Positions 1,972 through 24,097 of a stretch of 64,000 nt of DNA are shown here, piece after piece. How positions within the stretch are numbered: position 1 is the stretch's first letter; every line of letters starts with the position of its first letter. Source of the DNA: Ostreococcus lucimarinus (Eukaryota); the NCBI GenBank assembly GCA_000092065.1, contig CP000593.1. One strand, 5' to 3'. The translations under genes were made by a program, and so were the position numbers. A model generated the notes under the pieces. It made no database searches. It worked only from the letters and a program-made list of their open reading frames with translations, and had not been told where the DNA came from.

Positions 1972-2535
1972 CATGAACTTTCGACGCGCGACGTGACCTT
2001 TGGGCGCCACGCGCGCCCGGAGACGGCGCGCGCGCGTCGGCACGACGCGACGCTCGAGGACGCGGGAGACGCGCGATGTCGCCGCCGACGCCGCGCGACG
2101 TCGATCGCCCGTCCCCGCGCGCGCCCGCGCCGAGACGCGCGACGCGAGGCGACGACGACGCGGGAGACGACGGCGTCGCCGTCACGCGCGCGAATGCGAA
2201 AAATGAAAATGAAGCGAATGCGAATCGAACGGCGCGCGCGTCGACGACGCGCGAGGACGCGCGCGAGGCGAACGGGAACGATGGGAAAACCGCTCGAGAG
2301 CCGACGAGGGTGCGCGCGACGCGCGAACGGGCGATGCGATGGCGACGGGAGGGAAACATTCGGGAGATGGGCGATCTTTCAAACGGCTGGTGATTTTGAA
2401 AGATTTTTTAAACGCGAGGACGCGAAGACGCGAGGGCGATCGGGGCGCGGTGAAGGCGCGCGAGAGACTGACGAAGGCGCGAAACGTGGATTTTTAACGT
2501 CGCAGAGCGCGTCGTACGAGTCGAGCGAACGACCG

Positions 2536-4545
2536 ATGATGACGCCGTCGTACATGGAGTGGTATCGAGCGGCGATGGCGAACGGCGGCGTGGTGCCGGC
2601 GGCGGGGACGCCGTTGCAGGTGGTGTCTCAGCACGAGTTCGCGGTGCCGGTGGTGGTGCCGGTGAACTTAATGCCGGGTGGGGAGGGTATGTCACCGCCT
2701 GGGGTGGCGGATATGGGGTACGGGGGGTACGATCCGCACGCGATGGCGGCCGGTTCGTACGCGCCGGCGGGCGCGTACGGGGTGCCGCCGCCGATGATGA
2801 TGATGGGCGCGCCGGCGCCGCCGGGGGCGTACGGTGAGTACGCATACGCGGCGATGACGGCGGCGCAGCACGAGTATTACGCAGCCATGCATAACGCGCA
2901 TCATTACGACCACTACGGGTACGTGATGCCGCCTTACATGGGCGCGGGCTTTGTCCCTGGCGGTCGCGGATACGGCAGGCGATCGCCGGGAGGTCGCGGC
3001 GGTCGAGTGGGAGGTCGTGGCGGCCGAGGTCGCGGCGAGCAGTGGCGTAATGGTGTGCACGTGAACGGTGGTATCGTCGGTGGCCGCTTCTACGGCGCCA
3101 GTGGACGATATTTCGGCGATGGACGTGCGAACGAAAAGGCGGTGCCGTACACCGTCTTCGTCAAGGATGTGCCGGCGAGCGTGAGCGAACGCGAATTAGC
3201 GGATGTTTTCGCCTCGTGCGGCCGCATCATAGACTGTCGCATGTGCGGTGATGCGAACACACACAAGTTTAGCTACGCCTTTGTGGCGTTTGAGTGCGCC
3301 GAGGCGGTGGATCGGGCGTTATTGTTGGACAAGACGCCGCTCCACGGGAAAAACATCATGGTGAAGAAGAGCGACACCGCGGTGATCCCAGTGAACCCGT
3401 TACTGCTACCGCAGAATGAACGAGAGGTTGAATCGTGCGCGAGGACAATTTACGTCGCAAACGTCGACAAGACCGTGGACTCGCACGCGTTGAAGTTACT
3501 TTTCGAGGACCGCGCCGGCCCCGTCAACCGCTTGCATTTGCAAGTGAAGAACAACGCCGTGGCGAATGTAGCCTTCGTAGAGTTCGTCGACCTCGAAAGC
3601 GTGGGAACCGCGCTGCATTTGACGGGTGAACAGCTTGGAAACCGCATGATTCGCGTGAGTGCGTCAAAGACGCCGCTCCGTTTGCATCGACGAACGAATC
3701 ACGGATCCGCGGCTTCGACTTCGGGCGACTCGTCTGCCGAATCGCAGCGCGCAACCATGCCACCGTTCCCTTACCCGTACTCGACGTCCACCCGGACCAT
3801 CGGTGATGAACCGACGACGCCGGAGTCGCCGCCGTGCAAAGTTTACGTGAGGAACATTCCGAAAACTTTATCTCCAGGGAGTCTCAGGGCGATGTTTTCC
3901 GAATGTGGACAAGTGAGACACGTCGAGTTGCTCACCAACCCAAAGAGTAAGTTTCCGTACGCTTTCATAGACTTTGAGGACAACGAAGCGGTAAAGCGCG
4001 CGTTGGATTTAGACGGCAAAGAAGTGGATGATTGCCAGCTCAAAGTTGAGATCTCGCACAGCAAAAAGCGCGCCCTGACACGGCCATTGGATCCAGTAGC
4101 GCAAGAAAAGGCGGATCGCACGGTTTACGTGACGGATATCGACCCTGAGATCGAACCGACGCTCGTGCGCGACAAGTTTGAGGAGGAATGCGGTGAGGTG
4201 GCGTTATTCTGGTACAAGGCGTTCGAAAAGGGCGAGAAGCAAGCCATCGCCTTCATCGAGTTCGCTGAACTGAGCTCTGTGGGTAAGGCGTTGAAGCTGT
4301 GTCGGACGCACTTTTTGTGTGACTCGCGCTTGGTCAAGGTTCGACACTCCGTCACAGCGTTGACACCCAAAGAAGGTCATCCCGGGACGTGCCACACTCC
4401 TGAATTAGACAGCCCCGCGAGCTCGAGCGGTGATGAAGGTCCGGATGATCGCGAGAGCGTCGTGCGTAATTTATCGTCTCCGCTCGACGCCGAAATCGTC
4501 GCGGCGAAGGTTGAGAAGTTAGGCATGAAGAACGCCGCGGCGTAG
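2536..4545 (+). CDS. RNA-binding protein with four RRM domains and a Gly/Tyr/Arg-rich (RGG) region; its RRMs resemble the CID / PABP-interacting type
   Basis: Four RNP-type domains (TVFVKDVP...FSYAFVAFE; RTIYVANVD...VAFVEF; KVYVRNIP...FPYAFIDFE; RTVYVTDID...IAFIEF) and an RGGRGGR stretch. RTVYVTDID...CRMCGD resembles plant CID8-13 RRMs. The ORF-track start at 1993 is GTG; the ATG chosen is at 2536 (MMTPSYMEW). Upstream in-frame ATGs at about 2197 and 2281 are possible alternatives. Confidence 0.75.
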   Translation: MMTPSYMEWYRAAMANGGVVPAAGTPLQVVSQHEFAVPVVVPVNLMPGGEGMSPPGVADMGYGGYDPHAMAAGSYAPAGAYGVPPPMMMMGAPAPPGAYGEYAYAAMTAAQHEYYAAMHNAHHYDHYGYVMPPYMGAGFVPGGRGYGRRSPGGRGGRVGGRGGRGRGEQWRNGVHVNGGIVGGRFYGASGRYFGDGRANEKAVPYTVFVKDVPASVSERELADVFASCGRIIDCRMCGDANTHKFSYAFVAFECAEAVDRALLLDKTPLHGKNIMVKKSDTAVIPVNPLLLPQNEREVESCARTIYVANVDKTVDSHALKLLFEDRAGPVNRLHLQVKNNAVANVAFVEFVDLESVGTALHLTGEQLGNRMIRVSASKTPLRLHRRTNHGSAASTSGDSSAESQRATMPPFPYPYSTSTRTIGDEPTTPESPPCKVYVRNIPKTLSPGSLRAMFSECGQVRHVELLTNPKSKFPYAFIDFEDNEAVKRALDLDGKEVDDCQLKVEISHSKKRALTRPLDPVAQEKADRTVYVTDIDPEIEPTLVRDKFEEECGEVALFWYKAFEKGEKQAIAFIEFAELSSVGKALKLCRTHFLCDSRLVKVRHSVTALTPKEGHPGTCHTPELDSPASSSGDEGPDDRESVVRNLSSPLDAEIVAAKVEKLGMKNAAA

Positions 4546-4601: not shown

Positions 4602-6011
4602 CTACTGCGCCTCGGCTATGCCGCGAACGATGCCGTTCGCGTGCGCCAAGCCGGTGACGATGACGCACGTGACGACTTCGTCGTCGTCTTCATCAATCCG
4701 CGGCGCTTGCGACGCCTCGACGCTCGCGCTCGCGAGTAAATACCCAGCCGGATGTGTCTCTAACGCGTGCACGTCGCACTCGTCCATTCCTTCGATCCAA
4801 ACCTCCAATTTCCGAGCCTTTGTCGTCGGGCGCTCGCCCTCCACCACGCGCGTCACTCGTGCGCGGCGCATGGAATCCTCAACGGCCACGGTTCCAGTAC
4901 GTCGAGCCGCATCGCCTAGAATCTCAAAGCAAGAACTACTCACGTAATGTCTCGCGCGCCCGAGTAAACACCCGAGCTCGGCGCCCACGAGGGATCCGCC
5001 ATTCGCTTCCGCGAGCGAGTCCATGAGCGCTAGCCAACGCGGCTCCCACAAGTTCAGCCTTCTCGTTTCGCCCCGTTTCAGCGGACGTTTCAGCGTGAAG
5101 CACGGCACCGCGCCAGCATCACTCGGGGTGAATGTTTGCATGCTCTTCTTCGTCGCCGACGGATCGGTGGAAAACCCAAATCGCACGCGGCGTACCCGCC
5201 CTCGAGCGATGCCCGAGCACACGTCGACGGCGTTCAACGCGTTGGCGCACAACACCTCGTCTCTTTCCATCCACAGCGTCTCCACGAGCGGGCAAAATAA
5301 TAAAAGCGCAAGGAACACGCCGACTGCGTCCACGAGACCGTTCTCCGCTCCGTTCGGCATCGCCAAGCTCGCCAACGTCGCCGCGACGAACGCCGCCGCC
5401 GGTCCCGCGAGCGGCGTCAGATTTCTCGGCTCGTCCATGAGAGCTCTCGCCACGTCCGCCGCGGCGAGCGCGCCATCGCTCGAAACACCCACGGATCCAC
5501 CATCCCACGCGTTTTTCACGTACGCCAACACCGTTTTCCACCGTTCGATCGCGAAAGGGTTCGTCCCGAACGCGCGAGCCGCCAACGCCTCGCCTATACC
5601 TCTCGCCCGCACGTCCCCGTACACCGTCAGCGCGTCCTCGCGCTCTGATTCGATGATACCGGTCAACAAATCGCTCCCGTATTCGGAATCGTCGATCACG
5701 CGCGCGCGTTCGACGAAGCTCGCGACGAGGGCGTCGGCGCGCTCTTGGTCGAGCTCGAGCACCACAGCCTGCGGTTTCGCGCGTCGTATGACCCGTCGAA
5801 CGTCTGCCGCCGCCGCCGCGCTCGCGTGGGAGGTACCGACGACGTAGAATTCGCACTGCGTCGCGCGGGAGGGTCGAGAGACGTCGAGTTTGAGGCTTTT
5901 TGAGACGAATCCCGTGCCGGGAGGGAGCCAGGTCGGGACGGCGGCGCCCGACGACGACGACGACGACGACGGGACGTCCGGGACGACGACGCGCACGCAC
6001 GCGGCGCGCAT
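4602..6011 (-). CDS. TraB-family protein with a C-terminal LON substrate-binding (LON-N, PUA-like) domain
   Basis: ATG at 6009-6011. TraB motifs are present (FYVVGTSHASAAAAADVRRVIRRAKPQAVVLELDQERADAL ... LWMERDEVL). The C-terminal 150 aa (PCFTLKRPLKRGETRRLNLWEPRWLALMD ... VTRVVEGERP) resemble the N-terminal domain of Lon protease. Confidence 0.6.
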   Translation of the reverse strand: MRAACVRVVVPDVPSSSSSSSGAAVPTWLPPGTGFVSKSLKLDVSRPSRATQCEFYVVGTSHASAAAAADVRRVIRRAKPQAVVLELDQERADALVASFVERARVIDDSEYGSDLLTGIIESEREDALTVYGDVRARGIGEALAARAFGTNPFAIERWKTVLAYVKNAWDGGSVGVSSDGALAAADVARALMDEPRNLTPLAGPAAAFVAATLASLAMPNGAENGLVDAVGVFLALLLFCPLVETLWMERDEVLCANALNAVDVCSGIARGRVRRVRFGFSTDPSATKKSMQTFTPSDAGAVPCFTLKRPLKRGETRRLNLWEPRWLALMDSLAEANGGSLVGAELGCLLGRARHYVSSSCFEILGDAARRTGTVAVEDSMRRARVTRVVEGERPTTKARKLEVWIEGMDECDVHALETHPAGYLLASASVEASQAPRIDEDDDEVVTCVIVTGLAHANGIVRGIAEAQ

Positions 6012-6176
6012 GGCGATCGACGCCGACGTCGGGCGCCTCGCGCGCGTCGCGACGTGAAGTTTGGGTCGGTTCTCTGTGTGTGACGTAGCAATTTGTCTAT
6101 TCTACCCGACGGGAGGGACGACGACGACGACGCGGGCGGCCTACCTCGCTTCACCGCGGCCGCGATCGCGCGGCTT

Positions 6177-9100
6177 TCACTTTTCCATCCTTGCCGCTCG
6201 TTTCTTTTTAGCCTTCTCTTCCTCTCGAGCGAGTTTCAACGACCTGGACGCGACGAAGCCTTCAAACGTCAAATCGCCCGTCTTCGCGATCGCCTCCTCG
6301 TCCGAATCGATGTCGTCGTCGGTGTCGTCTTGCGCGAGGATTTGCCTGCCATCGCGCCACTTTAACGTGGACTTTCGGTTGTCGATGCCGATGATCTTGG
6401 CCGTGACGTCGCGGCGAGTCTCGTCTTCTTCTTCTGACGAATATTCGGCCGTTTGCAAACGGTCGCCGGTGTCGGTGTCAAACAGCTCTCGACTTTGATC
6501 GTGGACGTTGCGAGCGACGAAAACATCGCTCCAAAATTGACGCCACACCGCATCGCCGGAGAGCGTACACGTGCGCTTATTGATGATGATCATCGCTTGC
6601 AAGATGAAACCGTATCGCTCGTCGATGGTGACGTTAATCTTCGGGGGCGTTCCTTTCCACTTTTTGACGTCGATGGGCTCGGTCCAGCCGTATTTCACCA
6701 CGCGACGGTTGTTCTCCTCCTTAAAAGCCGTCGACTCCACGTTGCGCGTCGCGATGAATCGCCGCCATCGCGACAAATGAATGGGTTTATTGAGTGTGAG
6801 CTTTTTCGTCTCCACGCTGCAATGCATGTAGGCCAAGTAGCGCATCAAATAAACAATTCCACCGCCCAACGCCGACCACGCGAGCATGTTCAAGATGAAC
6901 CAAACCGCGGGAACATTCACTATGTACGGCTGCACCGCTTCGACGGCCCATCGAATCTCGGTGAACGAAAGGTATTGCCCCGTGAATCGATCGAGAATGT
7001 CAAACGCGAGCGTCCCCGACAAAATCACTTGCGTCACCTCGAGCGTGGTGCTGTTGCGCGCCTGCGCTCGGAAAGCATCCTCTAAGTTTTTCGTCGTCCC
7101 TTCTATCGCCTCGTTGATGCGGAGCTTTCTTCGTGAGCCGATGACGGCGTTCATTTCTCGCAGAGACTCGAGATCGTTGACGCACGCCGCGATGACTTTT
7201 TCCAAGTCAACGGCGCGTCTTTGCAAGCGTTTCCACGACGGTTCCAACTGAAACAAGTCGTACAACACTTGCGACGCGCCGTCGCTCATATCCGCGCTCA
7301 ACTTTTCACGAGACGTGTCGACGTTTTCGAGCGACTCGAGCACGAACTGCTGAGTGGCGCTCAAGATCGTCACCGTCGTCGTGTGATCGGCGAGGCGCGA
7401 ACGAATGCGCGTTACGTTCGTCGGATCGATCTGATAGGTTTCAATCAACGCTCGCGTCTTCTTCAACTCGTCGTTCAGCGCGAAACAACTGCTGAAGACA
7501 CTTTTGATGAACAACGAGCGAGCTTGGAACGCTGAATATGTCGCGAGAAGCTTGTGATGACGTTCGGTGCGCGGACCAAAGACGACGACACCGCGTGAAC
7601 CAAAGACGATGACTTCTTGTTCGTTCAGGTCGTACGCGTAAAACGTCGCGCCGATGACTTGCTTGAGCTCGTTTTCGTTATCTTCACCATCCATGTACGC
7701 CGCGGCTTTCAGTTTTGGCGTCGCGCGCTCGGCGATGATGCACGTAAACTTGTCGCGATTGTCCGGCTCGCCCTTGTATGTGATGTTCAACATGGAGCGC
7801 TGACGCTCGGAAAATAAATTTCCCACCAGCGAGCTCGTGTCTTCGTGGACGTCGGAAAGTAAGCGCGCGAGTAAATCGACGCTGATATCGTTTCGAATTC
7901 GATCGGCGATGCCGTTGACGACGATGCCGTAAGTGATGGCGCCGTTTTCCCGAAAGTTGATGCCGAAAACCTCGATTTGCTGCTGCACCAAGTTACTCTT
8001 GGGCGCCCCGGTGGCGAGCAAGTCTGCCTCGACGTTTACGAATCGCGTTTCGTCGACGTCGAGGACTTTTAGCTCGGTTTTATTGTCGGCGTTGATCCCG
8101 ACCACCATGTTGAATTCGTCCTGCGTCGCGCTCGCTTCCGCGGTGAACATACCGCCCGCGACGCGGTCTCCCGTGCCGAGTTTTCTACAGAAAGAAACCA
8201 TTTCGTTCGATCCCATCGGCACGTATTCGGTGACGATGATTTTCACCGAGTCGAGCAAGATACTTTCACTCAGGCGCGGGTCGCGAATATCGCGACTACT
8301 TTGAACGGCGCCGCCGAGCACGCGTTTTGCCTTTTTGTGCCCGTTCAACGCGTTCGGTGTGAACGCATCGGAGCTCAGCATGTGCGGAGGGATGTACGGA
8401 GACGAGACGTACGGCACGTCTTCGACGTCCGTGATGGTGGAGCGGATGCGGACCCCGATCGAGGGGACGGTGAGGAAAAAATCCGAGGACTCGCGGTCGT
8501 ACCGCACCTCGAGGAGGTGACCAGCTTCGTGCACCAACGAATCTACCGACTGGCGCATCGCGCTCGTGAACCGTCCCGAGGCCGTCATCCTCTGCAAGAA
8601 TTCGCTCCCCTTCTTGGAAATCTTCAACAACGTCGAGTGATCGTACGTCTCGCTCGTCACCTTGAGCGCCGTGATGAAACCAAGCTCACGCAAATCGTCT
8701 AAATCGTCTCGTCCCTCTTCCGAGACGTTCAAATACCTCGGACACGCTCCAAATATCTTTTCTGATTTTGGCGCGTAATCGTAATCGAACACCGCGTTTC
8801 GCACGATGCCCTCGTACACGAGCACCAGGAGCGGCAGCTCGCGAATCCAGGGAGAACGTTTGTTGTTGTTGTTGTTGGAAACCGCAGACTTCGACTTCGA
8901 CTGTTTCTGAGACGCGTCGGTGTACAAACTCAGCATGTACAACAATTTCAACGCCTCGGGCGATTCCTCCATCTCCCGCTCGCGCGACTCGACTTCCCGC
9001 CGACGCCGAGTCGTGGACGAGGCGGAAGTGCTCGAGTCGGCGTCTGAAGCGCTCGAGTCCCGGGCGTCCCGGGCGTAGTGCGAAGAATCATCGTCATCAT

Positions 9101-9227
9101 CGTCATCGTCGACGCGAATCGTTGCGTCCGAATCCGAATCGTAGCCCTGCGGCGCCCCGCATTCCGCGCACGTCGCCGCGCCGCCGCGCACGACGGCCCG
9201 GCACGTCGCGCACCGCGTCGAATCCAT
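6177..9227 (-). CDS. Large hypothetical protein with an N-terminal C4 zinc ribbon (C-x2-C-x10-C-x2-C), an acidic tract and a C-terminal TM segment
   Basis: Continuous 1000-aa ORF; the first ATG is at 9225-9227 (MDSTRCATCRAVVRGGAATCAECG). The track start at 9236 is GTG. No confident family assignment. Confidence 0.5.
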   Translation of the reverse strand: MDSTRCATCRAVVRGGAATCAECGAPQGYDSDSDATIRVDDDDDDDDSSHYARDARDSSASDADSSTSASSTTRRRREVESREREMEESPEALKLLYMLSLYTDASQKQSKSKSAVSNNNNNKRSPWIRELPLLVLVYEGIVRNAVFDYDYAPKSEKIFGACPRYLNVSEEGRDDLDDLRELGFITALKVTSETYDHSTLLKISKKGSEFLQRMTASGRFTSAMRQSVDSLVHEAGHLLEVRYDRESSDFFLTVPSIGVRIRSTITDVEDVPYVSSPYIPPHMLSSDAFTPNALNGHKKAKRVLGGAVQSSRDIRDPRLSESILLDSVKIIVTEYVPMGSNEMVSFCRKLGTGDRVAGGMFTAEASATQDEFNMVVGINADNKTELKVLDVDETRFVNVEADLLATGAPKSNLVQQQIEVFGINFRENGAITYGIVVNGIADRIRNDISVDLLARLLSDVHEDTSSLVGNLFSERQRSMLNITYKGEPDNRDKFTCIIAERATPKLKAAAYMDGEDNENELKQVIGATFYAYDLNEQEVIVFGSRGVVVFGPRTERHHKLLATYSAFQARSLFIKSVFSSCFALNDELKKTRALIETYQIDPTNVTRIRSRLADHTTTVTILSATQQFVLESLENVDTSREKLSADMSDGASQVLYDLFQLEPSWKRLQRRAVDLEKVIAACVNDLESLREMNAVIGSRRKLRINEAIEGTTKNLEDAFRAQARNSTTLEVTQVILSGTLAFDILDRFTGQYLSFTEIRWAVEAVQPYIVNVPAVWFILNMLAWSALGGGIVYLMRYLAYMHCSVETKKLTLNKPIHLSRWRRFIATRNVESTAFKEENNRRVVKYGWTEPIDVKKWKGTPPKINVTIDERYGFILQAMIIINKRTCTLSGDAVWRQFWSDVFVARNVHDQSRELFDTDTGDRLQTAEYSSEEEDETRRDVTAKIIGIDNRKSTLKWRDGRQILAQDDTDDDIDSDEEAIAKTGDLTFEGFVASRSLKLAREEEKAKKKRAARMEK

Positions 9228-9483
9228 CGTATCCACCGATGGATTCGACCGCGGAGTGACGACGAACGAACGAACGCGCGAAAACCACCGACGTCCTCGC
9301 CCGAGCCCTCAACCTGTAACATTCGCGATCGCGGATCGACGGCGTCAAGCCGCGAAGATCTGTCGCAAACCCACCATCGAGCGACGTATAATACCAATTA
9401 TTCGTCCACCTCGCCGAGTTAAGCCTCGAAATAAAGAGCATGGGCAGTCGAATGTCCGCGATGTTGTGCGTATGCATAAACAG

Positions 9484-9840: not shown

Positions 9841-10338
9841 TCAAGCCAAGCCGCGTAACTCATCTACCGTAAATTGATACTTGTCGAGACTGCGCTTCGA
9901 AGGCAGCGTGCCGCGCGCTCGGGCATTCTTGAGGCACGTCTTGCGCAGTATTCCTTTTGCGTGCTGCTTGTAATAATTGAGTTGTCTGTAGTTACCATCG
10001 CCGCCGTCCCGCTTCGGCGTATATTGAGCTCTGCTGTAGGCTGGACTCTCGTCCACGTTCTCGCGGCACGCGTGTTTCTGGCTGCGTCCAGCAGCTCGGG
10101 AGTTGAATAAGCCGTCACGCTTCTCTCTCATGTAGGCACCTTTACGTTGATGGAGCTCTCCAGCTGGAATGTCCTTTTCGAGAACTCTCACGTCCGCGTC
10201 GCCAAACGTGAAGATTGGATGTCGTGCGTATTTATGCGAGGCAAGGCGCGCTCTGAGCGAACCCGTCGTCGATCCGATGTACGTTTTGTTACATTTCGCA
10301 TTATCGCTAAACATTTCGTACACGCATCCCGACGGCAT
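9841..10338 (-). CDS. Small GIY-YIG nuclease-domain protein
   Basis: ATG at 10336-10338. N-terminus CVYEMFSDNAKCNKTYIGSTTGSLRARLASHKY matches the GIY-(10)-YIG...R...H catalytic motif. It lies in an AT-rich island next to the SINE copy. Confidence 0.6.
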   Translation of the reverse strand: MPSGCVYEMFSDNAKCNKTYIGSTTGSLRARLASHKYARHPIFTFGDADVRVLEKDIPAGELHQRKGAYMREKRDGLFNSRAAGRSQKHACRENVDESPAYSRAQYTPKRDGGDGNYRQLNYYKQHAKGILRKTCLKNARARGTLPSKRSLDKYQFTVDELRGLA

Positions 10339-10516
10339 TTGTCCTGGTTACCTATCTATCCCTAAGAAAATATTGTTGCCAAAAGTGCCTCCTCCTGCGG
10401 TTTGCAGTCACATCCGAGAGACCATAGGTACGCGTATCGCTGCGTGGGCTGCAAGGTCCGGAATGTAGATACCGAACCGCCTGATTTCACACCTGGACGT
10501 TCGTGATCCGTCGAGA

Positions 10517-10707
10517 CCTGACGAAATGACGAACTTGTTTTGTCGTCCACAAATTCGTCAACCCGTCGTTCGGTGACACTTTGTGTGTACCAATGATGAA
10601 AATGACGAAATGTTAAAATATTTTAATGTTTATTTTTATTTTAGATCTATGACAAGCAACAGTGTGGACCTTTATGAAAACAGTTCGTCATTCGTCATTT
10701 CGTCAGG
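10517..10707. repeat. MITE-like element or hairpin: terminal inverted repeats of about 18-25 bp (cctgacgaaatgacgaac ... gttcgtcattcgtcatttcgtcagg) flanking a roughly 150-bp AT-rich core
   Basis: The reverse complement of the right arm matches the left arm; the arms contain an internal gacgaat tandem. Confidence 0.45.
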
Positions 10708-11169
10708 ATCCAAACCATGGTCTTTTTGGTGTCTCGTTGAGTCTTCATATTGCAAATGTACGAATTACAAAATTAGTATGAGCACCAGACGACCGCCGGC
10801 GCGAGCTCCGTCTCCCCTGTGTACCCATTGTCCTTCAGCCACTCGAAGCACCCGTCGCGGTGAATTTCCCAATAGACGCCCTTCTCGTCTCTACCTTGCC
10901 TCAGGTGGTCCTCTTCCATTGGGACCCTGTGGCCCTTTTCCTTCTTGAAGAAGTCCTTGAGCTTATTGCCGACCTTCGTCGCGCTATCTTGACCGCGCGC
11001 AGCCGCTGGCAACCACGTCTGGTATTCGATGAAGATGTCACTGTGTGCATAAAAATGACTTGCGCTCACATCGGTGTGGGCTCACTATAAAGGACAAGCT
11101 TACATGTCGGAAGAGTTGCCCGAGTCCACATCTCCACCCTGTTCCGCTTCAGTGTCACCTAGAAAGACA

Positions 11170-12810
11170 TCAGACTAAGCCGTCGTTTTGAGAGGGCGCC
11201 GACTTTGCCTTTGGTTTTGCCTTCGACTTTGAAGTGGGTTGCGGCCTGATCTCCTCTTCGATCTCCTCGTCGTCGACCAAATCTTCGTCGATTTCTTCGT
11301 CGTCTTCGTCATCGACTTCGTCGTCTTCGTCTTCGTCGTCTTCGTCTAGAAAGACATCACCCATGACTGCTCTCCAGCCATCAGAACCCATTTCGAATTC
11401 TTCGTCGGTCAAGAGGCAAGAGTCCAACGTTGATTGAATTTCATCGTATTTAAGATCCTTGCCAATGAACACCAGTTCTTGTCGGCGATCACCATAAGGC
11501 CCCTCCCAGTCTTTACGAAGTTCTTGCTTTATCCCCTGTGAGCCGACCCAAGCATTTTTATTCAGCGCGGTCCATCGGCTTGATCCTTCGAGAGAGTAAA
11601 TATTACCAGCCTGACTGAAAACAATTATCAAGTCGTGGGCATCACTGAGCCACGTTACACCCTTCGAACGTAGCAGCACACCAATTTCACCTTCCCTTTT
11701 ACGGCGCTTGAGTTTCATCGCTTCTTGTCGCGCTCGAATATCTTTCACTGCACTCCAGTCTACACTTGGTGTCTCTTCATCTTTTTCTTCATCACGGTCA
11801 TCGGCCTCGAGGGAGCTGAAGAAGCGCTCGACAAATGAGCCTAAAAACCGTTTGGGATGAAAAGGTCTTCTGGCTCGGTAAATGAAAGACGTAATACCGA
11901 ACCGACTATCGTGACGTGTTTGGGAAGAACTTGGTGCAAGCGTGACCTCGCTTAAGGCTGTTTCTCTCATGCGAGCTCGCTTACAGCATGGAGACTCACC
12001 TTTGTCCCTAGCGCCGGCGCAGCATGACTTCACAGATGTTGCTTCTATCTCTTGTTCCCATGTTATGAAACCAGCAAAGTCATTCTCTTTGTAAAGTTTT
12101 GTATTGACGATTCGCGTAACGTCGATCGCGCCGTTCACAGCTTCAAGAATATCAGCACGTGAATTGAGAAGTTGTATCTGCGCTTTAATCTCGGCGAGTT
12201 GTTCGTCATCGACAGTGTCGACCTTGTTCAATACGACGACATTCGCGTACTCTATCTGTTCAGCCAACAATTGAGAGTAAGACTGCCTGTTCACAGCTGA
12301 CGCCCTGAAAGAATCAATCATGTCGAGAAAGTCACCTGCAGCGATGACCGTCACGCACGTATCCAGCCGCGCCAGTGTGCTCAAATGTTCATGCTCATCA
12401 ACGTGCGCAGCTTCATGATCGTGATCGTCCTCACAATTTGCGAAGAGTTTCGCAATTTCCGCCGGTTCCGACACTCCTGATGCCTCTACGATCATGTAGT
12501 CAAAATTGCCACTCTTGGCCATGTCCCCGATTTGTTTTACAAAGTCTCCGCTCAACGAACAGCACACGCATCCGTTCTGCATGGCAACCACCTCGTCGCT
12601 CTGCAGCAAAGCGGAATCATCGATTAATTTTTTGTCGATGTTCAACTCCGCGACGTCGTTCACGACGACGGCACACCGAAACTTTCCGTTCGCGTCTCGC
12701 TTAGCTTCGAGCACGCGTTTCAGAGTTGTCGTCTTCCCAGCGCCGAGGAACCCGCACAGCGTTGTCACCGGCAATCGATTATGATTGGCGATTGCGGCGG
12801 GTGTGGACAT
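11170..12810 (-). CDS. COG0523 / CobW-domain GTPase (zinc metallochaperone, ZNG1/CBWD-like) with a His-rich segment and an acidic C-terminal tail
   Basis: P-loop GFLGAGKTT and NKVD; His-rich CEDDHDHEAAHVDEHEH; CobW C-terminal domain; poly-D/E tail. The track start at 12915 is GTG; the first ATG is at 12808-12810 (MSTPAAIANHNRLPVTTLCGFLGAGKTT). Confidence 0.85.
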   Translation of the reverse strand: MSTPAAIANHNRLPVTTLCGFLGAGKTTTLKRVLEAKRDANGKFRCAVVVNDVAELNIDKKLIDDSALLQSDEVVAMQNGCVCCSLSGDFVKQIGDMAKSGNFDYMIVEASGVSEPAEIAKLFANCEDDHDHEAAHVDEHEHLSTLARLDTCVTVIAAGDFLDMIDSFRASAVNRQSYSQLLAEQIEYANVVVLNKVDTVDDEQLAEIKAQIQLLNSRADILEAVNGAIDVTRIVNTKLYKENDFAGFITWEQEIEATSVKSCCAGARDKGESPCCKRARMRETALSEVTLAPSSSQTRHDSRFGITSFIYRARRPFHPKRFLGSFVERFFSSLEADDRDEEKDEETPSVDWSAVKDIRARQEAMKLKRRKREGEIGVLLRSKGVTWLSDAHDLIIVFSQAGNIYSLEGSSRWTALNKNAWVGSQGIKQELRKDWEGPYGDRRQELVFIGKDLKYDEIQSTLDSCLLTDEEFEMGSDGWRAVMGDVFLDEDDEDEDDEVDDEDDEEIDEDLVDDEEIEEEIRPQPTSKSKAKPKAKSAPSQNDGLV

Positions 12811-12986
12811 GATGTACGGCGATCGACGTCTCCGCGCGCGAACGAGCCGAAGAGGCGTCGCGAAGTGCGGCGATGCGCGCGCGTCGTGCACGTGTCGACG
12901 ATTCGCGTCGTGCACGTGTCGAGGATCGTCGTACGCGACGCCCCGCGAAGCCCATCACGGATCGCGTCGCGACGCGCGTCGTAAAC

Positions 12987-13143
12987 ATGTCGACACGCAT
13001 GTCGACATATTTACCCACGCGCGTGTACGCATTGAACCCCGTGATGCATCTATATACGAAAAACGTCTCGACGCACATGTCGACATATTTCGACATATCC
13101 AAGTACCACCGAGATGTGTCGACACTGCGGCGGATGTCGACAT
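12987..13143. promoter_or_regulatory. Cluster of five perfect 10-bp palindromes RTGTCGACAY (ZDRE-like zinc-deficiency response elements) plus one half-site, in the promoter shared by the COG0523 and ZIP genes
   Basis: ATGTCGACAC at 12987-12996; ATGTCGACAT at 12999-13008; ATGTCGACAT at 13077-13086; half-site TCGACAT at 13090-13096; GTGTCGACAC at 13116-13125; ATGTCGACAT at 13134-13143. All lie between the CobW ATG (12810, minus) and the ZIP ATG (13273 or 13369, plus). Confidence 0.6.
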
Positions 13144-13272
13144 TTTGTCGTTCGCGAGTCGTGACTTATAAACGACCGCCCTCCATCGCGCCGGTTCGGT
13201 TCGTATGCCGCTTTAGTTTGTGCGCAGCCGCACTTACCGACGCCGGCGAAGACGACGACGACGACGGAAACG

Positions 13273-14802
13273 ATGACGAACGAAAACACGAAGAACACGA
13301 AGACGACGATGCCGCCGCGCGAACGCGCACGCGGTGCGAGGACGGTCGAGCGACGACGAGGGCGAACGATGCGCTGCGCGAGCGCGCTCGGTGGTGGCAT
13401 CGCGATCGTCGCGAGCGCGCTCGCGCAGCGCGGCGCGCACGCGTCCGGCGCGCACGCATTCGAATGGGCTGGAATCTTTGAGACGCCAGAGAATGAATAC
13501 GTGTGGCAGGCGCAAAAGGTGGCCGATAAGTACGCCGCCGATACCATGAAAATGGTCATCTACGACGAAATCGCCGCCGGACACGACGAGCTCGAAGCCC
13601 GCGAGGATAGCGGTGATACCGCAATCGGGGGAGCTTGTACGACGGCTAAGATACGAGATAGTGTTTTGACACCTGATAGTGGGTGTGTCAACCTTGAATT
13701 TGACAACACCTGGCACACGACGCCGTTTAAGATTAATACGACTGGCATCGACGCGATCTCAATCTTCGCTGAGCACGTTCCCACCGAGTTCGAGCGCGAC
13801 GCGCACTATCTCAAGGACCTCCACGGAGATGACGTGGTGCCAAAAGCTTCACTTCCCGAAGCATCCACCGTGAGCGAATCGAAATCAAAACCGTGGGCCA
13901 ACGCCATTGGGGCGGCAATTATCGTCAATATCGTCACACTTTCTGGTGTGGTCTTTCTCATCCCGAGTATCGCTAAGAAGCAGAAAGCGTACCCTGAAAC
14001 TGTGAGTTGCACAATTAACTCGTTTGCCGCCGGCGCACTTCTTTCGGCTGCGTTTTATCTGATGTTCTACGAAGCCACGCATTTAATCAAACCTGCTGGC
14101 TCGGATGAGGCAGAGCAGACCGCATGGTGGGCTTCCGCTTCTATCTTCGGCTTTCTCATGGCCTACTTCATCGACTTTGGTATCTCTGTCGTGTTCCCAA
14201 CTCTTGGAAATACAGCGAAGACAACCGATGCGGAACTTGCAGTCAAAGGCGCTCAAGATGACTGTGATACTTGTACTTGTAACTCACACAAGTATCGCGT
14301 TCGAAGTGGTATCATTCTTGGAGATTTCATGCACAACCTAGTGGATGGTATTTTCATTGGCTTCGGCTTTCTGAACTGCGACAGTACCATGGGATGGTCG
14401 ATCACCGCCGCGACCGTCTATCACGAAATCGCTCAAGAGCTTGCTGACTACTTGGTGCTCGTAGACCCCTTCCAGGGCGATCTCGCGCCGTTGCCGACGC
14501 TGACTTTAAACTTCGTTTCCGGCTTGAGTGTCATTCTTGGCGTCCTCATTAGTGTTGGATCGGGAAATAACAACGACTTCTGGCATGGACTGCTGCTCGC
14601 CTTCGGTGCTGGAGTCTATCTGCAAATCGCCGCCGCAGAGTGCATGCCCCGAGTATCAGTGAGCGCCACTTCACCTCGTCTTCGCGCGACGAGCATTCTC
14701 ACCTTCATCGTCGGCGTTGTTGCCATCAGTCTCGTGCTCCTCAACCACAAGCATTGCACAGGCGGTGGCGGTGGCGGAGACTCACACGCACACGCGCACT
14801 AA
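13273..14802 (+). CDS. ZIP-family (Zrt/Irt-like) metal transporter
   Basis: ZIP signature in TM helices (GDFMHNLVDGIFIG ... YHEIAQELADYLVL). ATG at 13273; an alternative ATG at 13369 gives a signal-peptide-like start MRCASALGGGIAIVASALAQRGAHA. Confidence 0.85.
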   Translation: MTNENTKNTKTTMPPRERARGARTVERRRGRTMRCASALGGGIAIVASALAQRGAHASGAHAFEWAGIFETPENEYVWQAQKVADKYAADTMKMVIYDEIAAGHDELEAREDSGDTAIGGACTTAKIRDSVLTPDSGCVNLEFDNTWHTTPFKINTTGIDAISIFAEHVPTEFERDAHYLKDLHGDDVVPKASLPEASTVSESKSKPWANAIGAAIIVNIVTLSGVVFLIPSIAKKQKAYPETVSCTINSFAAGALLSAAFYLMFYEATHLIKPAGSDEAEQTAWWASASIFGFLMAYFIDFGISVVFPTLGNTAKTTDAELAVKGAQDDCDTCTCNSHKYRVRSGIILGDFMHNLVDGIFIGFGFLNCDSTMGWSITAATVYHEIAQELADYLVLVDPFQGDLAPLPTLTLNFVSGLSVILGVLISVGSGNNNDFWHGLLLAFGAGVYLQIAAAECMPRVSVSATSPRLRATSILTFIVGVVAISLVLLNHKHCTGGGGGGDSHAHAH

Positions 14803-15026
14803 TGAGAGCGGTAAAAAAATGTCAATTACTATCAAATCAAGTTGTGGCAAACACACCCACGGCCACTGACGGAGATCTATTTTTCAAGCTAGAGGATCAT
14901 ATAAATTGTAAATCGAAACGCTCTTCGTAATTTACGGCACCTGTTCCTCGATCTCCTGGCGAACATCGATGAATTATTTCGATAAGATGTCCCAGATGTT
15001 ACCCACACCACGGTACTTGTGAAGCT

Positions 15027-15369
15027 TAATCCAGATACGCGCGCACGCCTTTCTGAAGCATGGTCGGTACCTCGGCTTTCAACTTGTCTGGGAGCGTCGC
15101 GTCGGCGTCCTTGACCTCGCGCAGAAAATCGAGCACCCTATTGGTGGAGAACTGTCAGGGAAGGATCCAAGGTGGCGGCATTTGATACACAGGTTGCGCC
15201 AGGCTTTGTTAGACAGCAACGGACTCGATTTTACATCATCCGCCAGTATTGCAATTCCTACACGCTTCCCATTTAGCCAGTGCTTGGGCTCCTCGAATTG
15301 GTCTGTTTCGGGATTATACAGACTGAGCATCTCTGGGGTCAAATACTCGTCCCACACGGAGGCGTTCAT
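15027..15369 (-). CDS. Small hypothetical protein, tentative two-exon model
   Basis: Exon 1 runs from the ATG at 15369 (MNASVWDEYLTPEMLSLYNPETDQFEEPKHWLNGKRVGIAILADD). A putative GTAAAA donor, TCTAAC branch and pyrimidine-rich ...ccttccctgacag acceptor join it to exon 2, FSTNRVLDFLREVKDADATLPDKLKAEVPTMLQKGVRAYLD*. Unspliced, the frame reads into a low-complexity tail. Weak model. Confidence 0.25.
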
Positions 15370-15432
15370 CAGGTGCCCATCGAGTTCCTTGTATTGCTTC
15401 AATCTCGTCGCGGTATCTCTGTAAACAATTTT

Positions 15433-15660
15433 GCTGGTAGAGTGTCAGACTGTTAGGAAAAAGTCTCCGTCGAATATGACGGCTGCTCCGATAGAGATCT
15501 GGAAGCCGCGGGATCGAAACCCGCAGGAAGAGATGTGTCGACATCACACCTTACTTTTTCCCACACCCGATTGTCCGTGATGGAAAAGCGACACGACAAC
15601 ACTGTGACTTTCGTCGTTTCGGGGTGACGGATAGTACTTTAAAAAATTTATCGCTGTGAG
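15433..15660 (+). mobile_element. Second, 5'-truncated copy of the tRNA-Asn-derived SINE-like element
   Basis: About 98% identical to 9498-9725 (two to three substitutions). It lacks the 5' acceptor stem and part of the D-arm, as expected for a 5'-truncated retroposed copy, and sits between the JmjC gene's 3' end and a small gene. Confidence 0.6.
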
Positions 15661-15770
15661 ATTCACCCCCATGGGGGGAGCTCGGCTTCCCTGATTTTTT
15701 TGTCACTTTTTCACGACGCCGCGAACCCCTCGTCCCGAACTCCGAGACGCGACGCGAGACATCCATCCCA

Positions 15771-16943
15771 TCACACGAGTCGCCCCCCCGCGAGATAATC
15801 GGCGACTCGCACGACGCGCGCGTTCGCGTCGAACGCGCCCGCGTGGACGTCGTCGTCGCCCGCCGCGAGCGCGGCGCCTTCGTCGTCGAAATCCACCTCG
15901 TCGAGCGCTCGGTAGCTCTCCATCAACGCGGGATCTTTGGCGGCCATGAGCTTTAAATCTTCCAACACGCGGTCCAGATTGACGTCGTCGACGAAGTTTC
16001 CCGCGAACGCCACCGTGCAATCGAGGTTTCGAACGGCGTGCGGCGAGCCGCCCGGCACGAAAAGCACCTCGCCCGGGCCAAGATCGACGTCCCATCGGCG
16101 CGCGCCGAATTCACGCGGGAGCGGTAACATTCCCATCTCTTCTTGTTCCTCCAACGGTGGCATCGCGGGATCGAGCGTGCCGCGCGACCAGCTCGGCCGT
16201 AAAAACGCGAGCGATTCGCGCGAGAAGACGGTCCATCGCTTCGTGCCGCGCACCACGGCCATGAAAAAGTGCCCCTGCCACTGATCGACGTGCAGGGACG
16301 ATCGCGTGTTCTTCGCGGCGACAAACAAGCTCGGCCACGACCGTGAAAATGCCGTCAATCGCATCGTGCGCTGCATGTAATCGTGTGCCACGTACGCCGG
16401 TACGCGCACGCTCTCCGACAACGACGGCAGCTTGAGCGGAATCGACGTGTCGTACAAGTAACTCCCCGCCCCTCGATCGTCCACGACTTCCGCGAAAAAG
16501 TCCTTTAAATCCAAAACGTCCGTCACCTCGCACGACAGCGTCGCGCGTCGGTGACCATCCTTCCTCGTGACGGCGACTTTTTTATTCCCGGCGCGCCGCG
16601 TCAACCACGCGCACGTCTCGCCGTCCGCGCCGTCCTCCGTCAGCGCGCTCCCGAGCCCCTCGATCACGACCGGGGTATCCGTGGCGACGTATTCGAGTCG
16701 AAAACGTCGCGGCGTGAGATCGCGCGCGTGCACGCGCGCGACGTCGCGTCCCGTCGTCGTCGGTTTTTCGACACCCGAATCTGCGGCGGCGGCGGCGGCG
16801 AGCGTCGCGCGCGCGCGCTCGACGCGCGCGACGATCGCGTCGACGTACGCGCGACGACCGTCGTCGGTCTCTCGGGCAGCGCGCGCGGCGAGATCGGCGC
16901 GCTCGACGTCGAGGCGCGCGATCTCTTCGTCGAAAAGCGTCAT
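15771..16943 (-). CDS. JmjC (cupin-like) domain protein
   Basis: ATG at 16941-16943. JmjC core: WQGHFFMAVVRGTKRWTVFS ... EVLFVPGGSPHAVRNLDCTVAFAGNF. Confidence 0.7.
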   Translation of the reverse strand: MTLFDEEIARLDVERADLAARAARETDDGRRAYVDAIVARVERARATLAAAAAADSGVEKPTTTGRDVARVHARDLTPRRFRLEYVATDTPVVIEGLGSALTEDGADGETCAWLTRRAGNKKVAVTRKDGHRRATLSCEVTDVLDLKDFFAEVVDDRGAGSYLYDTSIPLKLPSLSESVRVPAYVAHDYMQRTMRLTAFSRSWPSLFVAAKNTRSSLHVDQWQGHFFMAVVRGTKRWTVFSRESLAFLRPSWSRGTLDPAMPPLEEQEEMGMLPLPREFGARRWDVDLGPGEVLFVPGGSPHAVRNLDCTVAFAGNFVDDVNLDRVLEDLKLMAAKDPALMESYRALDEVDFDDEGAALAAGDDDVHAGAFDANARVVRVADYLAGGRLV

Positions 16944-17055
16944 CTTGTGCGGGACGGCGTCGGCTCGACCGCGCTCGACTCACTGCGACTGGCTCTGACT
17001 CTTCTACATCTTCGGGACGCGGCGTCCCGATCCCTAACGCGTTCGCCGTCGCGAC

Positions 17056-18285
17056 CTATCGTCGCGGCGCCTCGTCGTCGTCGTCCGCGGCGCGCTCTAA
17101 CAACCGTCGCGCGGCTTCGAAGACGCTAAAAGTAATCGCGCTCGCGGGGGCGGACTTGATCAGACTCGGCATCAAGCCCTTGTAAAACCCACCCACGCCC
17201 TCGCTGCGCGCGATCGTTCGCACGGCGGCGAAGAAACTTTTGTACGCGCCCGCGTCGACGCGTTGGCCGTAGGCTAAACTTCGAGAGAATCCGGCGACTT
17301 GGAATCGTTTCTTGACGACGTCGAGCGGGTGAATGACGAGCCGCGCGATGGTGCCCGCGGCGAACCCGCACGCGAAATCGTTCTCCCCGAACACTTCGGG
17401 GAGGTTTGATTTCAACGCAGCGTACGAGCCGAACTGCACCGCGCTCGCGGGAACGATCTCGGCGAGCGTCACGGAGACGCCCGCGTACAAACCTTTGGCG
17501 ACGCCGCGTTCGCGAACGACGCCGAGCGCGGCGTCGAACACGTTATTATACACCTTCGGGTGACCCTGACTCGCCAGTAACGTTCGAATGACATCGAACG
17601 GGTACGTCGCCACCGTCGCCACCGATCCCGCGGCGGCGCCACCGATGAAACTCACCGGCAGTCCCGCCGTCGATCCCGGTTTCGCGCGCTCCCGCTCCCT
17701 CGCCGCCTCCTTAAACTTATTCAACACCGTGAACTGTATCGCCGTGTACGGCACCCACAGCAGCAGCGCCGGCACCGTCCCCGCCCACATCGCGCGCCCC
17801 CCCTCCTCGCGCAGTATCGTCCGCGTCGCGTCCGCCAGCCCTCGATACTTCCCGCTCGCGCCTCGCTCGACTTGCACCTGCAACCGAATCTTAATCACGT
17901 CCAACGGCGCCACGCACACGCGCGCCGTCGCGCCCGCCAGCGCGCCCGCCGTCGTCGTCACCCACACCGCCGTCGTTCGCGCGTCCTCGCTCGCGTCCCT
18001 CGCGATTCGCGTCCTCCCTCTCGTCGCGTCTCGCGTCGTCGTCGCCGTCGTCCCGCTCGCGGCTCGCGCGCGCGCCTCCTCTCGCGTCCCTTCGCGTCGT
18101 TTCGCCGACGTCGACGCCTCCGCGCCGCGCGCGCTCGCGCGCGACATCGTCGCCGTCGTCACCGTCGCCGCGAGCGTCGCCGCGGCGAGCGCGCGCGTCG
18201 CGCGCGTCGTCGTCTCGCGTCGCTTTCCGCGCGCGTGGAATTGGAATTTGAATCCCGGCGCGCCGTCGCCGAACGCCGCGCGCAT
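17056..18285 (-). CDS. Mitochondrial carrier family protein (SLC25), thiamine-pyrophosphate-carrier-like
   Basis: Three carrier repeats (PLDVIKIRLQVQ; PFDVIRTLLASQ; PLDVVKKRFQVAG) and YRGLADATRTILREEG, resembling TPC1/SLC25A19. ATG at 18283-18285; an internal ATG (MSRASARG) is an alternative start. Confidence 0.8.
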   Translation of the reverse strand: MRAAFGDGAPGFKFQFHARGKRRETTTRATRALAAATLAATVTTATMSRASARGAEASTSAKRREGTREEARARAASGTTATTTRDATRGRTRIARDASEDARTTAVWVTTTAGALAGATARVCVAPLDVIKIRLQVQVERGASGKYRGLADATRTILREEGGRAMWAGTVPALLLWVPYTAIQFTVLNKFKEAARERERAKPGSTAGLPVSFIGGAAAGSVATVATYPFDVIRTLLASQGHPKVYNNVFDAALGVVRERGVAKGLYAGVSVTLAEIVPASAVQFGSYAALKSNLPEVFGENDFACGFAAGTIARLVIHPLDVVKKRFQVAGFSRSLAYGQRVDAGAYKSFFAAVRTIARSEGVGGFYKGLMPSLIKSAPASAITFSVFEAARRLLERAADDDDEAPRR

Positions 18286-18668
18286 TCGCGCGCCGCGCCG
18301 GCGCGTTCGAACGCCGACGTTCGAGCGCGCGTCGCGTCGTCGCGTCGGCGCCGCGCCGCGCCGACGTCTCGCGCGATTCGACGGCGCGCGCGCGATCGAG
18401 CGCGCGACGATGCTTACACTAAACTATCACGTACACTAAATACACACACCCGTATGTCCGAATACGTACGACCAGTATTGTGATTCATATTTACCCCATC
18501 ACGTATATTTTCTCGAAACGCTATCCACGACGGCGCCACGCGCCACACCGCGACGCGACGCGACCGCGCGACGCGCCGGCGCGCGCTCGACCGCGCGCGC
18601 GCGACTCGAGCGTCGACTCGACCGCGCTCGACCGCGCGCGAGCGCCGACGGACGCCGCGGTGGCGACG

Positions 18669-18688
18669 ATGCCGACGACGACGATGCG

Positions 18689-18719
<31 letters not shown>

Positions 18720-20681
18720 CGCGGCGGGCGACGCGCGCGCGAGGGACGCGCGCGCGACGACGGGCGACGACGCGCGATGCCTCGATGCGGCGCGACGGCG
18801 CGGGACGAGCGCGCGATGGGACGCGCGCGATGGGCGGGACGAGGGCCGGGACGCGCGCGAGCCGGGACGCGCGCGGCGGCGTCGGGCGACGATAAAAAGG
18901 CGCTGACGCTCGAGGAGCGCATCGCGAGCGGAGAGTTCACGAAGGCGTCGTCCACGGGACCGTTTCGAAAGGTGGCGGACGGGCTGCGGGGACTGGTGCC
19001 CGAAGACGCGGGACCGGTGGGGCGAGGGGTGTCGCTGGCGCTCGCGAGGTTATCGAGGCGGTGGCGCGCCGAGGCGATGTCGAAGATGCCGGTGGCGAGC
19101 GGGGACATTCGCGAGATCGCGGGACAACCGGTTTTTGTGCCGCTGTATAAGCTGTTCTTGGCGTACGGGGAGATGTTCGTCCTGGCGATCGGGCCGAAGA
19201 AATTCGTCGTCGTGAGCGACAACGCGGTGGCCAAGGAGATGTTGCTCACGCAGGCGAAGAGCTTCTCCAAGGGATTGCTGTCGGAGATTTTGGACTTTGT
19301 CATGGGTCAGGGGTTAATCCCGGCGAACGGTGAGGTGTGGAAGATTCGACGCAAGGTGATCGTGCCGAGCTTGCACAAAAAGTACGTCACGTCCATGGTG
19401 GACATGTTCGGCGACTGCGGGTTGAAGGGGATGTCGCAGCTCGCGCGCGCGGAGAAGGCGAACGAGTCGGTGGAGATGGAGAACTTTTACTCGCGATTCG
19501 CCTTGGATATCATAGGCAAGGCGGTGTTCAATTACGATTTCGACTCCTTGTCCACGGACGACCCCGTGATCAAAGCCGTGTACACGGTTTTGCGCGAAGC
19601 CGAGTACCGGAGCGTGACGTTTATTCCCTATTGGAAGGTTCCCCCGCTTCGCTGGCTCGTGCCGAGGCAGCGTCAGTGCCAGGAGGCGCTGCAAGTGGTG
19701 AACGACACCTTGGATGACCTCATCAACCGATGCAAAGCCGTGGTGGAGGAAGAGGATGAGGAATTCGTCGAGGAGTACATGAACACGGACGATCCGAGCA
19801 TTTTGCACTTTCTCATCGCGAGCGGCGACGACGTGACGTCCAAGCAACTTCGCGATGATTTAATGACGCTCCTGATCGCCGGCCACGAAACCACCGCCGC
19901 GGTGCTGACGTGGACGACATTTTTGCTCGCCAAGCACCCCGAAGTGAAGGCCAAGGTATTCGAGGAGGTTGACCGCGTCGTCGGCGACCGCAACCCGACG
20001 GTGGCGGATATGCGCGCGCTCGTGTACACGACGCGCGTCATCAACGAGTCCATGCGACTTTACCCGCAACCTCCGGTGTTAATCAGGCGCGCGTTAGAGC
20101 CCGTCACCCTCGGAGGGTACAACATCGACGCCGGAACCGACTTCTTCATTTCGGTTTGGAACTTGCACAGAAACCCGCGGATTTGGGACGAACCCGACGC
20201 GTTCAAGCCCGAACGCTTCCCGATCGACGCCCCGATGCCGAACGAGTACACCGAAGAGTACGCGTACTTGCCCTTCGGCGGTGGCCAGCGCAAATGCGTG
20301 GGCGATCAGTTTGCTATTTTTGAGTCAATCGTGTCGCTCGCCATGCTCATGCGACGATTCGACTTTGAACTCGACGAGTCCAAGCACCCCGACGGCGAAT
20401 GCGGCATGACGACGGGCGCGACGATTCACACCACGAACGGCTTGCACGTCAAGCTCAAGCGCCGCGATGGGCGAGGTGGGCGAGAGATGGACGGCACGTA
20501 CGTCACCGGTATGGCGTTGAGCAACCTGGAAGACGTCGACGTCGTTCGAGGGTCCATCGACGCCCCGACGGCGAGCGCGGACGAGTTCGACGCCGCCGTC
20601 GACGACGTTGACGGGGACACGTCGGAGAAACTCGAGCGCGCGAAAGAGATCATCGAGGAAGAGACAGCGAAGGCGCGCTAG
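18669..20681 (+). CDS. Cytochrome P450, CYP97 family (carotenoid hydroxylase, LUT1/LUT5-like) with a Ser/Thr/Arg-rich transit-like N-terminus
   Basis: Heme loop FGGGQRKCVGDQFAIFESIVSLAMLMRRF; I-helix LIAGHETTAAVLTW. Long collinear similarity to plant CYP97 (IASGEFT, FVPLYK, DDPSILHFLIASGDDV, MTTGATIHTTNGLHVKLKRR). The track start at 18480 is GTG; the first ATG is at 18669. Confidence 0.9.
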
Positions 20682-20845
20682 TCGTAGGCAACGAAAATCG
20701 CATCGATCGTTCATCATCAGTAGCTCAAACGAATTTTAATTCTATTCATCGGAACGTCGAACGCCGAAGCGCGGTGGTGTCTCGCTTAGCGATAACGCTT
20801 ATAATATCGGTATTAAGAAAGAATCGCGCGCGCACGCAGTCTAGT

Positions 20846-22237: not shown

Positions 22238-22480
22238 GTGACGCGTTACCGGGACGCGGCGGCGCGTGGCGGCGGGGCGACCGACCGTATGTGCGTAAAC
22301 AGTACAGACGACATTTTCGACGCCCGCGCGTCGACGTCTCGAACGAATTCGTTCTCGAATACGACGTATGGAGGCGCAGTCAGCGCGCTGTTTGCGCGGT
22401 GCTTCAATACGGGCGGTGTGATTTAATTAGCGCCGACGGATCGCGCGATCGACGGCGCGCGCGCGACACGGCGACGCGCG

Positions 22481-24018: not shown

Positions 24019-24097
24019 CGACAATTTGTCATCGTCAACGCACCGGTATAGTTCGCGCCGCGCCGCGTCCCTCGCGTCACTTCGCCTCGCGCGCGCG

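Follow-up and report, generated by a model that had tools for sequence, protein, structure and literature searches.

A Lon N-terminal-type lobe very probably nested inside the TraB domain of a protein from Ostreococcus lucimarinus and other algae

How can a TraB/PrgY-type domain and the N-terminal domain of Lon protease, both already known in their own right, be combined in a single protein? The question is raised by a gene on the minus strand of a 64,000-nucleotide stretch of Ostreococcus lucimarinus DNA (assembly GCA_000092065.1, contig CP000593.1), referred to here as the window, whose positions supply all coordinates below. The complete coding sequence (4602..6011) runs from ATG to stop without an intron and encodes 469 amino acids followed by a stop codon at 4602-4604, as supported by the list of open reading frames (ORFs), the alignment of orthologs and metagenome gene calls. 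All features of the gene described below lie on the minus strand, which a preliminary description, made from the nucleotide letters alone, had left unstated. That description proposed a fusion in which a TraB-family domain makes up the N-terminal two thirds and a Lon-N-like domain the C-terminal 150 residues. Here, we report that the Lon-N lobe is very probably nested inside the TraB domain, in the loop that leads from the ERD helix to the final strand of the sheet, and it is this nested combination that appears to be new.

The region has a guanine-plus-cytosine (GC) content of about 61%, and its other reading frames hold several long ORFs that overlap; a chance ORF therefore had to be excluded. 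A long ORF arising by chance in GC-rich DNA, or a read-through merging two adjacent genes, would be in keeping with that base composition. Against such an artefact, more than 100 protein clusters, drawn from several phyla, show the motifs in this order within a single ORF; the TraB domain, moreover, would be complete only downstream of the insert, and the AlphaFold model of the 469 residues is confident (predicted local distance difference test, pLDDT, 83; predicted template modelling score, pTM, 0.84). Homologs at E<=1e-3 numbered 59, with identities from 86% down to about 30%, including Ostreococcus tauri XP_022840237.1 (43%) and Micromonas pusilla XP_003058782.1 (37%), and more distant relatives down to about 20% identity still keep the invariant motif residues. 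An alignment of 35 sequences contained 33 invariant columns, grouped in motifs. Orthologs align to the ORF over its full length, and because this alignment runs end to end the gene has no intron. Gene calls on three marine metagenome contigs include the identical protein, flanked there by the same neighbouring genes. A tblastn search against plasmids gave no match. The 469-residue ORF is a real gene, and an artefactual origin is practically negligible.

Identity of the two domains

The protein carries a divergent TraB/PrgY hydrolase domain of the TIKI superfamily. Pfam matched PF01963 to residues 53-110 (26.5 bits, E 7e-6) and NCBIfam matched TIGR00261 to residues 52-98. PF01963 was also matched by 32 of 35 close homologs, with 29.1-30.9 bits in the orthologs that exceeded the cut-off. 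A family profile from which the insert had been deleted aligned by hhalign to residues 10-134 of PrgY from pCF10 with 98.2% probability (E 4.7e-14). The alpha/beta fold built around a parallel beta-sheet, as expected of TraB/TIKI members, was also found. Two further comparisons were uninformative or returned the family itself: hhalign against E. coli YbaP gave a probability of 2%, and searching for homologs with the profile lacking the insert brought back members of the family alone, without any canonical TraB protein.

The N-terminal segment of the TraB/TIKI domain (residues 30-197; 5421..5924) holds GTSH at residues 59-62 (5826..5837), with the first candidate catalytic His, and LELDQER at residues 85-91, in which ELD (residues 86-88; 5748..5756) carries the candidate catalytic Glu. 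These align with GTAH and LEWD of PrgY, respectively. Both GTSH and ELD are invariant in the 35 aligned sequences and prevail in a further 55 that are more distant, and the individual residues G59, T60, H62, E86, D88 and R91 are invariant in the 35. The ERD helix follows further downstream (residues 248-270; 5202..5270); its R250 and D251 are invariant, and its motif is the same as ERDQYL in PrgY. The motifs on which the preliminary description had relied were all recovered, at residues 57-62 (VVGTSH), 71-77 (VRRVIRR), 83-88 (VVLELD) and 248-254 (MERDEVL) in the TraB part and at residues 319-331 (LNLWEPRWLALMD) and 385-395 (RVTRVVEGERP) in the Lon-N-like part.

The inserted lobe of the Lon N-terminal type (residues 300-432; 4716..5114), which contains LNLWEPRWLALMD, is identified above all by the predicted structure, which we regard as decisive. 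Foldseek on the full model returned cereblon, BPP1347, a Xanthomonas Lon N-terminal domain protein and Lon N-domains as top matches. In structural comparison BPP1347 scored 14.5 (root mean square deviation 1.7 A over 106 residues, 20% identity), the Xanthomonas Lon-N protein (7cay) 13.8, E. coli Lon-N (2ane) 13.1, a substrate-bound Lon N-domain (9jwa) 12.8 and cereblon 11.3. The model contains the beta-rich fold that characterises the N-lobe in Lon N-domains. The best match to another fold, the PUA-like domain of RsmE, scored 7.2. That the insert is instead a generic PUA-like or ASCH-type module for nucleic acid or a small ligand, serving an enzyme with a non-protein substrate such as an esterase like EreC, is considered unlikely.

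Sequence profiles agree with the predicted structure in distant relatives. Orthologs of the stramenopile type match PF02190 at the homologous position, P0264 with 32.9 bits (E 7.6e-8) against a cut-off of 28.7, and P0265, P0259, P0258 and P0146 with 26.3, 25.3, 24.6 and 22.4 bits, below the same cut-off. Their link to the Ostreococcus protein comes from searches with the profile of the insert, which gave E values of 1e-20 to 1e-60, or with that of the TraB part. No match to PF02190 was obtained in 34 close homologs (E<=1), and the insert profile matched none of the PDB sequences. The matches in the orthologs start at profile position 2 and nearly all end by about position 128 of 200, with one ending at 136, which indicates that the beta N-lobe alone is present and the helical C-lobe absent. 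In agreement with this, the helical C-lobe (profile positions about 125-200) was not found in the model, in which the corresponding segment has one helix and re-enters TraB after residue about 432. The Lon-N-like fold suggested by the preliminary description is thus upheld by Foldseek and by PF02190 in orthologs, but it occupies residues about 300-432 and not the extreme C-terminus, and it consists of the beta N-lobe only. The Pfam searches that had been proposed showed PF01963 as borderline in the protein itself and PF02190 in distant orthologs but not in the query. The proposal had been said to fall should a Lon-N-like fold go unsupported; structure prediction supports such a fold.

A Lon protease was considered and rejected. 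PF01963 is the sole Pfam match on the 469 residues, no Pfam or NCBIfam match to an AAA+ ATPase module or an S16 Ser-Lys protease domain was found, and the length of the protein is fully explained by TraB plus insert. The protein differs in the same way from LonA and cereblon, as it has neither the AAA+ module and S16 protease domain nor a thalidomide-binding domain. Database labels for the family are inconsistent and include "hypothetical", "TraB family protein" and "Lon protease-like protein". The last of these, attached to one Joint Genome Institute ortholog, is misleading.

Nested topology

The insert amounts to about 185 residues and is made up of a linker (271-299), the Lon-N lobe (300-432) and a second linker (433-445). 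The linker leading out of TraB (5115..5201) is conserved, with a strand at 273-281, a helix at 284-293 and nearly invariant R275 and F280. The linker leading back into TraB (4677..4715) is acidic and variable, with a pLDDT of about 52 in the 431-440 block and a length that varies in the alignment. A pattern R.R..F.F in the first linker fits neither the TraB nor the Lon-N models.

The layout turns on what follows the insert. The C-terminal 24 residues (VVTCVIVTGLAHANGIVRGIAEAQ; residues 446-469, 4605..4676) are conserved as a hydrophobic strand followed by G-L-x-H-x-N-G, here GLAHANG at 454-460, and are modelled with high pLDDT as a strand (447-454) and a helix (455-467). The motif has the form of the second His motif of the family, of which GQAHLRG (PrgY) and GALHLYG (E. 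coli YbaP) are examples. Its histidine, H457, is retained in 33 of the 35 aligned sequences and in 50 of the 55 more distant ones. From this we infer that residues 446-469 are the final strand of TraB, carrying the second candidate catalytic His. The order GTxH, LE(L/W)DQxR, GA(D/E)F, ERD, GxAHxxG is shared with PrgY/TraB of the Enterococcus pheromone plasmids (PF01963, TIGR00261). Among 55 diverse members of the algal family, some of them fragments or lacking a motif, the order GTxH, ELD, RD, FEPRW, GLxHxNG was kept wherever these were detected, and no other order was seen. The distance from ERD to the second His is 22 residues in PrgY and 207 in the Ostreococcus protein, a departure from the canonical spacing that is due to the insert. 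A C-terminal profile placed the tail on the PrgY strand QEAGKIVVVIGQAHLRGV by hhalign (E 1.7e-4), and when the ERD helix was joined directly to the tail in chimeric sequences, 3 of 10 matched PF01963 at positions 210-254 of 263. These lines of evidence are individually modest, yet they are mutually consistent and also consistent with the need for a second catalytic His.

A plain end-to-end fusion would have an N-terminal TraB domain, a C-terminal Lon-N domain and a last stretch of about 25 residues forming an unrelated conserved tail. It can draw on the Pfam TraB model, which covers only the N-terminal 60 or so residues of the query and stayed short of the C-terminus when the insert alone was deleted in silico, and on the hhalign alignment of the whole insert-deleted profile with PrgY, which ends at query position 100. 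It is opposed by the tail itself, whose conserved strand and G-L-x-H-x-N-G resemble those of PrgY and YbaP, by the placement of that tail on the last PrgY strand and by the reach of the three chimeras. Without H457, moreover, the 2His/2Glu set described for active members of the TIKI superfamily (PMC6254334) would be incomplete. We regard an end-to-end fusion as very unlikely. The preliminary layout accordingly gives way to a nested insertion, on the evidence of motif order, PrgY spacing, tail alignment and chimeras. TraB was correctly located in the N-terminal part, as PF01963, TIGR00261 and the PrgY alignment attest, but the domain resumes at residues 446-469.

Several results count against a TraB domain enclosing a Lon-N lobe and temper the assignment. 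The PF01963 score of the query lies 0.3 bits under the Pfam cut-off of 26.8, and PF02190 gave no match on the query even at E<=10. Neither a phmmer search nor the full-length family profile yielded a meaningful match among PDB sequences by HMMER. As regards the position of the tail, its alignment to PrgY reached a probability of only 49%, and the best chimera an E of 0.0027, each of which is individually weak. Despite these points, the nested arrangement of TraB and Lon-N is held with high confidence.

Possible function, relatives and distribution

Within the TraB domain a hydrophobic helical hairpin (residues 198-247; 5271..5420) directly precedes the ERD motif and is a probable membrane anchor. 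Its two segments, about 198-218 and 225-247, reach 1.56 and 2.39 in Kyte-Doolittle (KD) windows of 19 residues, and this hydrophobicity is a conserved, family-wide feature (medians of 1.77 and 2.01 in 100 sequences). The segments are modelled as helices 195-216 and 222-270. Such a hairpin would place both halves of TraB on one side of a membrane. The N-terminal extension (residues 1-27, MRAACVRVVVPDVPSSSSSSSGAAVPT; 5931..6011) is poorly conserved and variable in the alignment, has a pLDDT below 50 for residues 1-21 and is not hydrophobic (KD15 maximum 0.9); it is possibly a short targeting peptide. Signal-peptide-like hydrophobic N-termini occur in the diatom orthologs and in some prasinophyte relatives and are found neither in the query nor in Micromonas. 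Predicted targeting thus varies by lineage, which counts against the reading put forward below.

Enzymes of the TIKI superfamily cleave peptide or ester bonds via a His-Glu pair, and appended substrate-recruiting domains are frequent among them and required for activity (PMC6254334). In LonA, hydrophobic patches on the N-lobe serve to catch proteins that are unfolded or bear a degron (PMC8087443). In the algal protein the hairpin would provide membrane association, the TraB domain would act as a hydrolase independent of ATP, with peptidase activity as in Tiki and RRSP the most likely, and the Lon-N lobe would recruit or position a polypeptide substrate for the TraB active site. The lobe would then serve its own protein, in cis, much as the N-domain serves LonA, but with no AAA+ unfoldase involved. 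We put forward this membrane-associated, ATP-independent hydrolase with a substrate-capturing lobe only tentatively, as a possible mechanism; architecture and mechanism taken jointly are considered somewhat probable. A wider reading, in which the family represents a so far unnoticed group of marine algal peptidases that are anchored in membranes, independent of ATP and engaged in quality control or processing (a "Lon without the motor"), is speculative and at present doubtful. The role in regulating proteolysis or remodelling membranes that the preliminary description suggested is likewise speculative.

The main rival to the hydrolase mechanism is a non-catalytic scaffold or tether, in which the TraB fold would be structural and the Lon-N lobe a protein-protein interaction module as in cereblon. 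Some TraB-family proteins are indeed non-catalytic, namely the Arabidopsis tethers TRB1/2, which act at contacts between the endoplasmic reticulum and mitochondria, and a subunit of Tetrahymena respiratory complex IV, and these precedents speak for a scaffold and against catalysis. On the other side, the candidate active-site residues H62, E86, H457, R91, R250 and D251 show little or no variation even between green algae and dinoflagellates, whereas PMT, an inactive TIKI member, has lost its candidate catalytic residues (PMC6254334). A scaffold is accordingly judged rather unlikely. In the Arabidopsis TRB literature the enzymatic role of the TraB domain in eukaryotes is still termed unknown.

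None of the related systems compared here is described with the same arrangement. PrgY is bacterial and plasmid-borne, lacks the Lon-N lobe and carries its hydrophobic segments (about 250-385) after the domain, unlike the algal protein with its hairpin inside the domain. Tiki1/2 (TRABD2A/B), RRSP, EreB/EreC, Bcr135/136, ChaN and HopBA1 are not described with a Lon-N lobe. In Tiki-type hydrolases extra domains are appended and not nested, and no sequence similarity between them and the algal family was detectable by HMMER. The Tetrahymena TraB-family subunit (8bqs/8b6h chain DQ) is structural, and a Lon-N insert has been neither reported nor detected in it. Arabidopsis TRB1, TRB2 and TRB3 are likewise eukaryotic proteins of TraB homology, TRB1 and TRB2 being membrane-anchored, and no Lon domain is mentioned for them. 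On the Lon side, BPP1347 (PDB 1zbo) and the Xanthomonas protein (PDB 7cay) are free-standing, with 170-200 residues including the helical C-lobe, in contrast to the embedded N-lobe of the algal protein.

An exhaustive hidden Markov model search of 1.84 billion cluster representatives with the insert profile yielded only 122 matches at E<=1e-3. Named members of the family include Ostreococcus and Micromonas (Mamiellophyceae), Cymbomonas tetramitiformis, the diatoms Cyclotella, Conticribra and Skeletonema, the bolidophyte Triparma and the dinoflagellates Prorocentrum cordatum and Polarella glacialis. The architecture search that had been suggested for green algae and stramenopiles therefore found recurrence in both (Micromonas and Cymbomonas; diatoms and Triparma), and the earlier idea of a lineage-specific protein does not hold for a family present in prasinophytes, diatoms, bolidophytes and dinoflagellates. 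Among the profile-search matches, most of which lack an organism name, neither a canonical Lon protease nor a land-plant protein was identified. In the incompletely searchable literature no paper on a combination of TraB with the Lon N-terminal domain (PF01963 and PF02190) was found. Plastid endosymbioses or gene transfer may have carried the family from one photosynthetic lineage to another.

TraB/Tiki-type proteins are widespread and little understood. A Lon-type lobe built into the catalytic domain provides a testable hypothesis, namely that the substrate is a polypeptide, and the family offers a compact model for substrate recognition by the Lon N-lobe outside an AAA+ machine. Given its conservation in the dominant picoplankton (Ostreococcus, Micromonas), in diatoms and in dinoflagellates, the protein may mark a shared algal pathway of proteostasis or processing.

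Members of the dinoflagellate type have GV(A/S)H for GTxH and FEPRF/Y for FEPRW. This subgroup (P0180, P0185, P0192, P0197, P0199, P0202 and P0209) consists of proteins of 580-770 residues with GV(A/S)H-x-DG, in which neither domain was matched by Pfam at E<=0.1; P0192 is named Prorocentrum/Polarella and the others were assigned by shared motifs. Cluster listings were used solely for accessions and organism names and contained unrelated proteins. At 90% identity, 53-residue DUF4177 proteins of Amycolatopsis were grouped with the O. tauri protein, and the cluster of the 469-residue query has a representative of 1028 residues, so that membership is not evidence of homology.

Neighbouring genes and the window

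The gene neighbourhood is that of a compact eukaryotic genome without operon logic, and neither neighbour offers a functional hint. The convergent neighbour (1993-4545, plus strand) encodes a multi-RRM (RNA recognition motif) RNA-binding protein with three such motifs (PF00076, E 2e-43). Its stop lies 56 nucleotides from that of the TraB gene, a spacing expected in a compact picoalgal genome. The ORF list starts it at a GTG, and the metagenome gene call has 669 residues. Upstream in tandem (6177-9236, minus strand) lies a 1019-residue ORF with an acidic and Ser-rich N-terminus. It had no Pfam match in our search and is annotated as PF27231 (MJ1567) plus PF27230 (MJ1566_N) in the precomputed annotation of the metagenome contig.

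The ORFs that overlap the TraB gene, at 5023-5847 on the plus strand and at 5119-6000 and 5696-6154 on the minus strand, encode 152-293 residues, are rich in Arg, Ser, Pro and Ala and look of low complexity. They are most likely by-products of high GC and not genes. Elsewhere in the window the GC content shows a step, from about 0.50-0.55 at 10001-16000 to 0.66-0.70 at 16001-30000.
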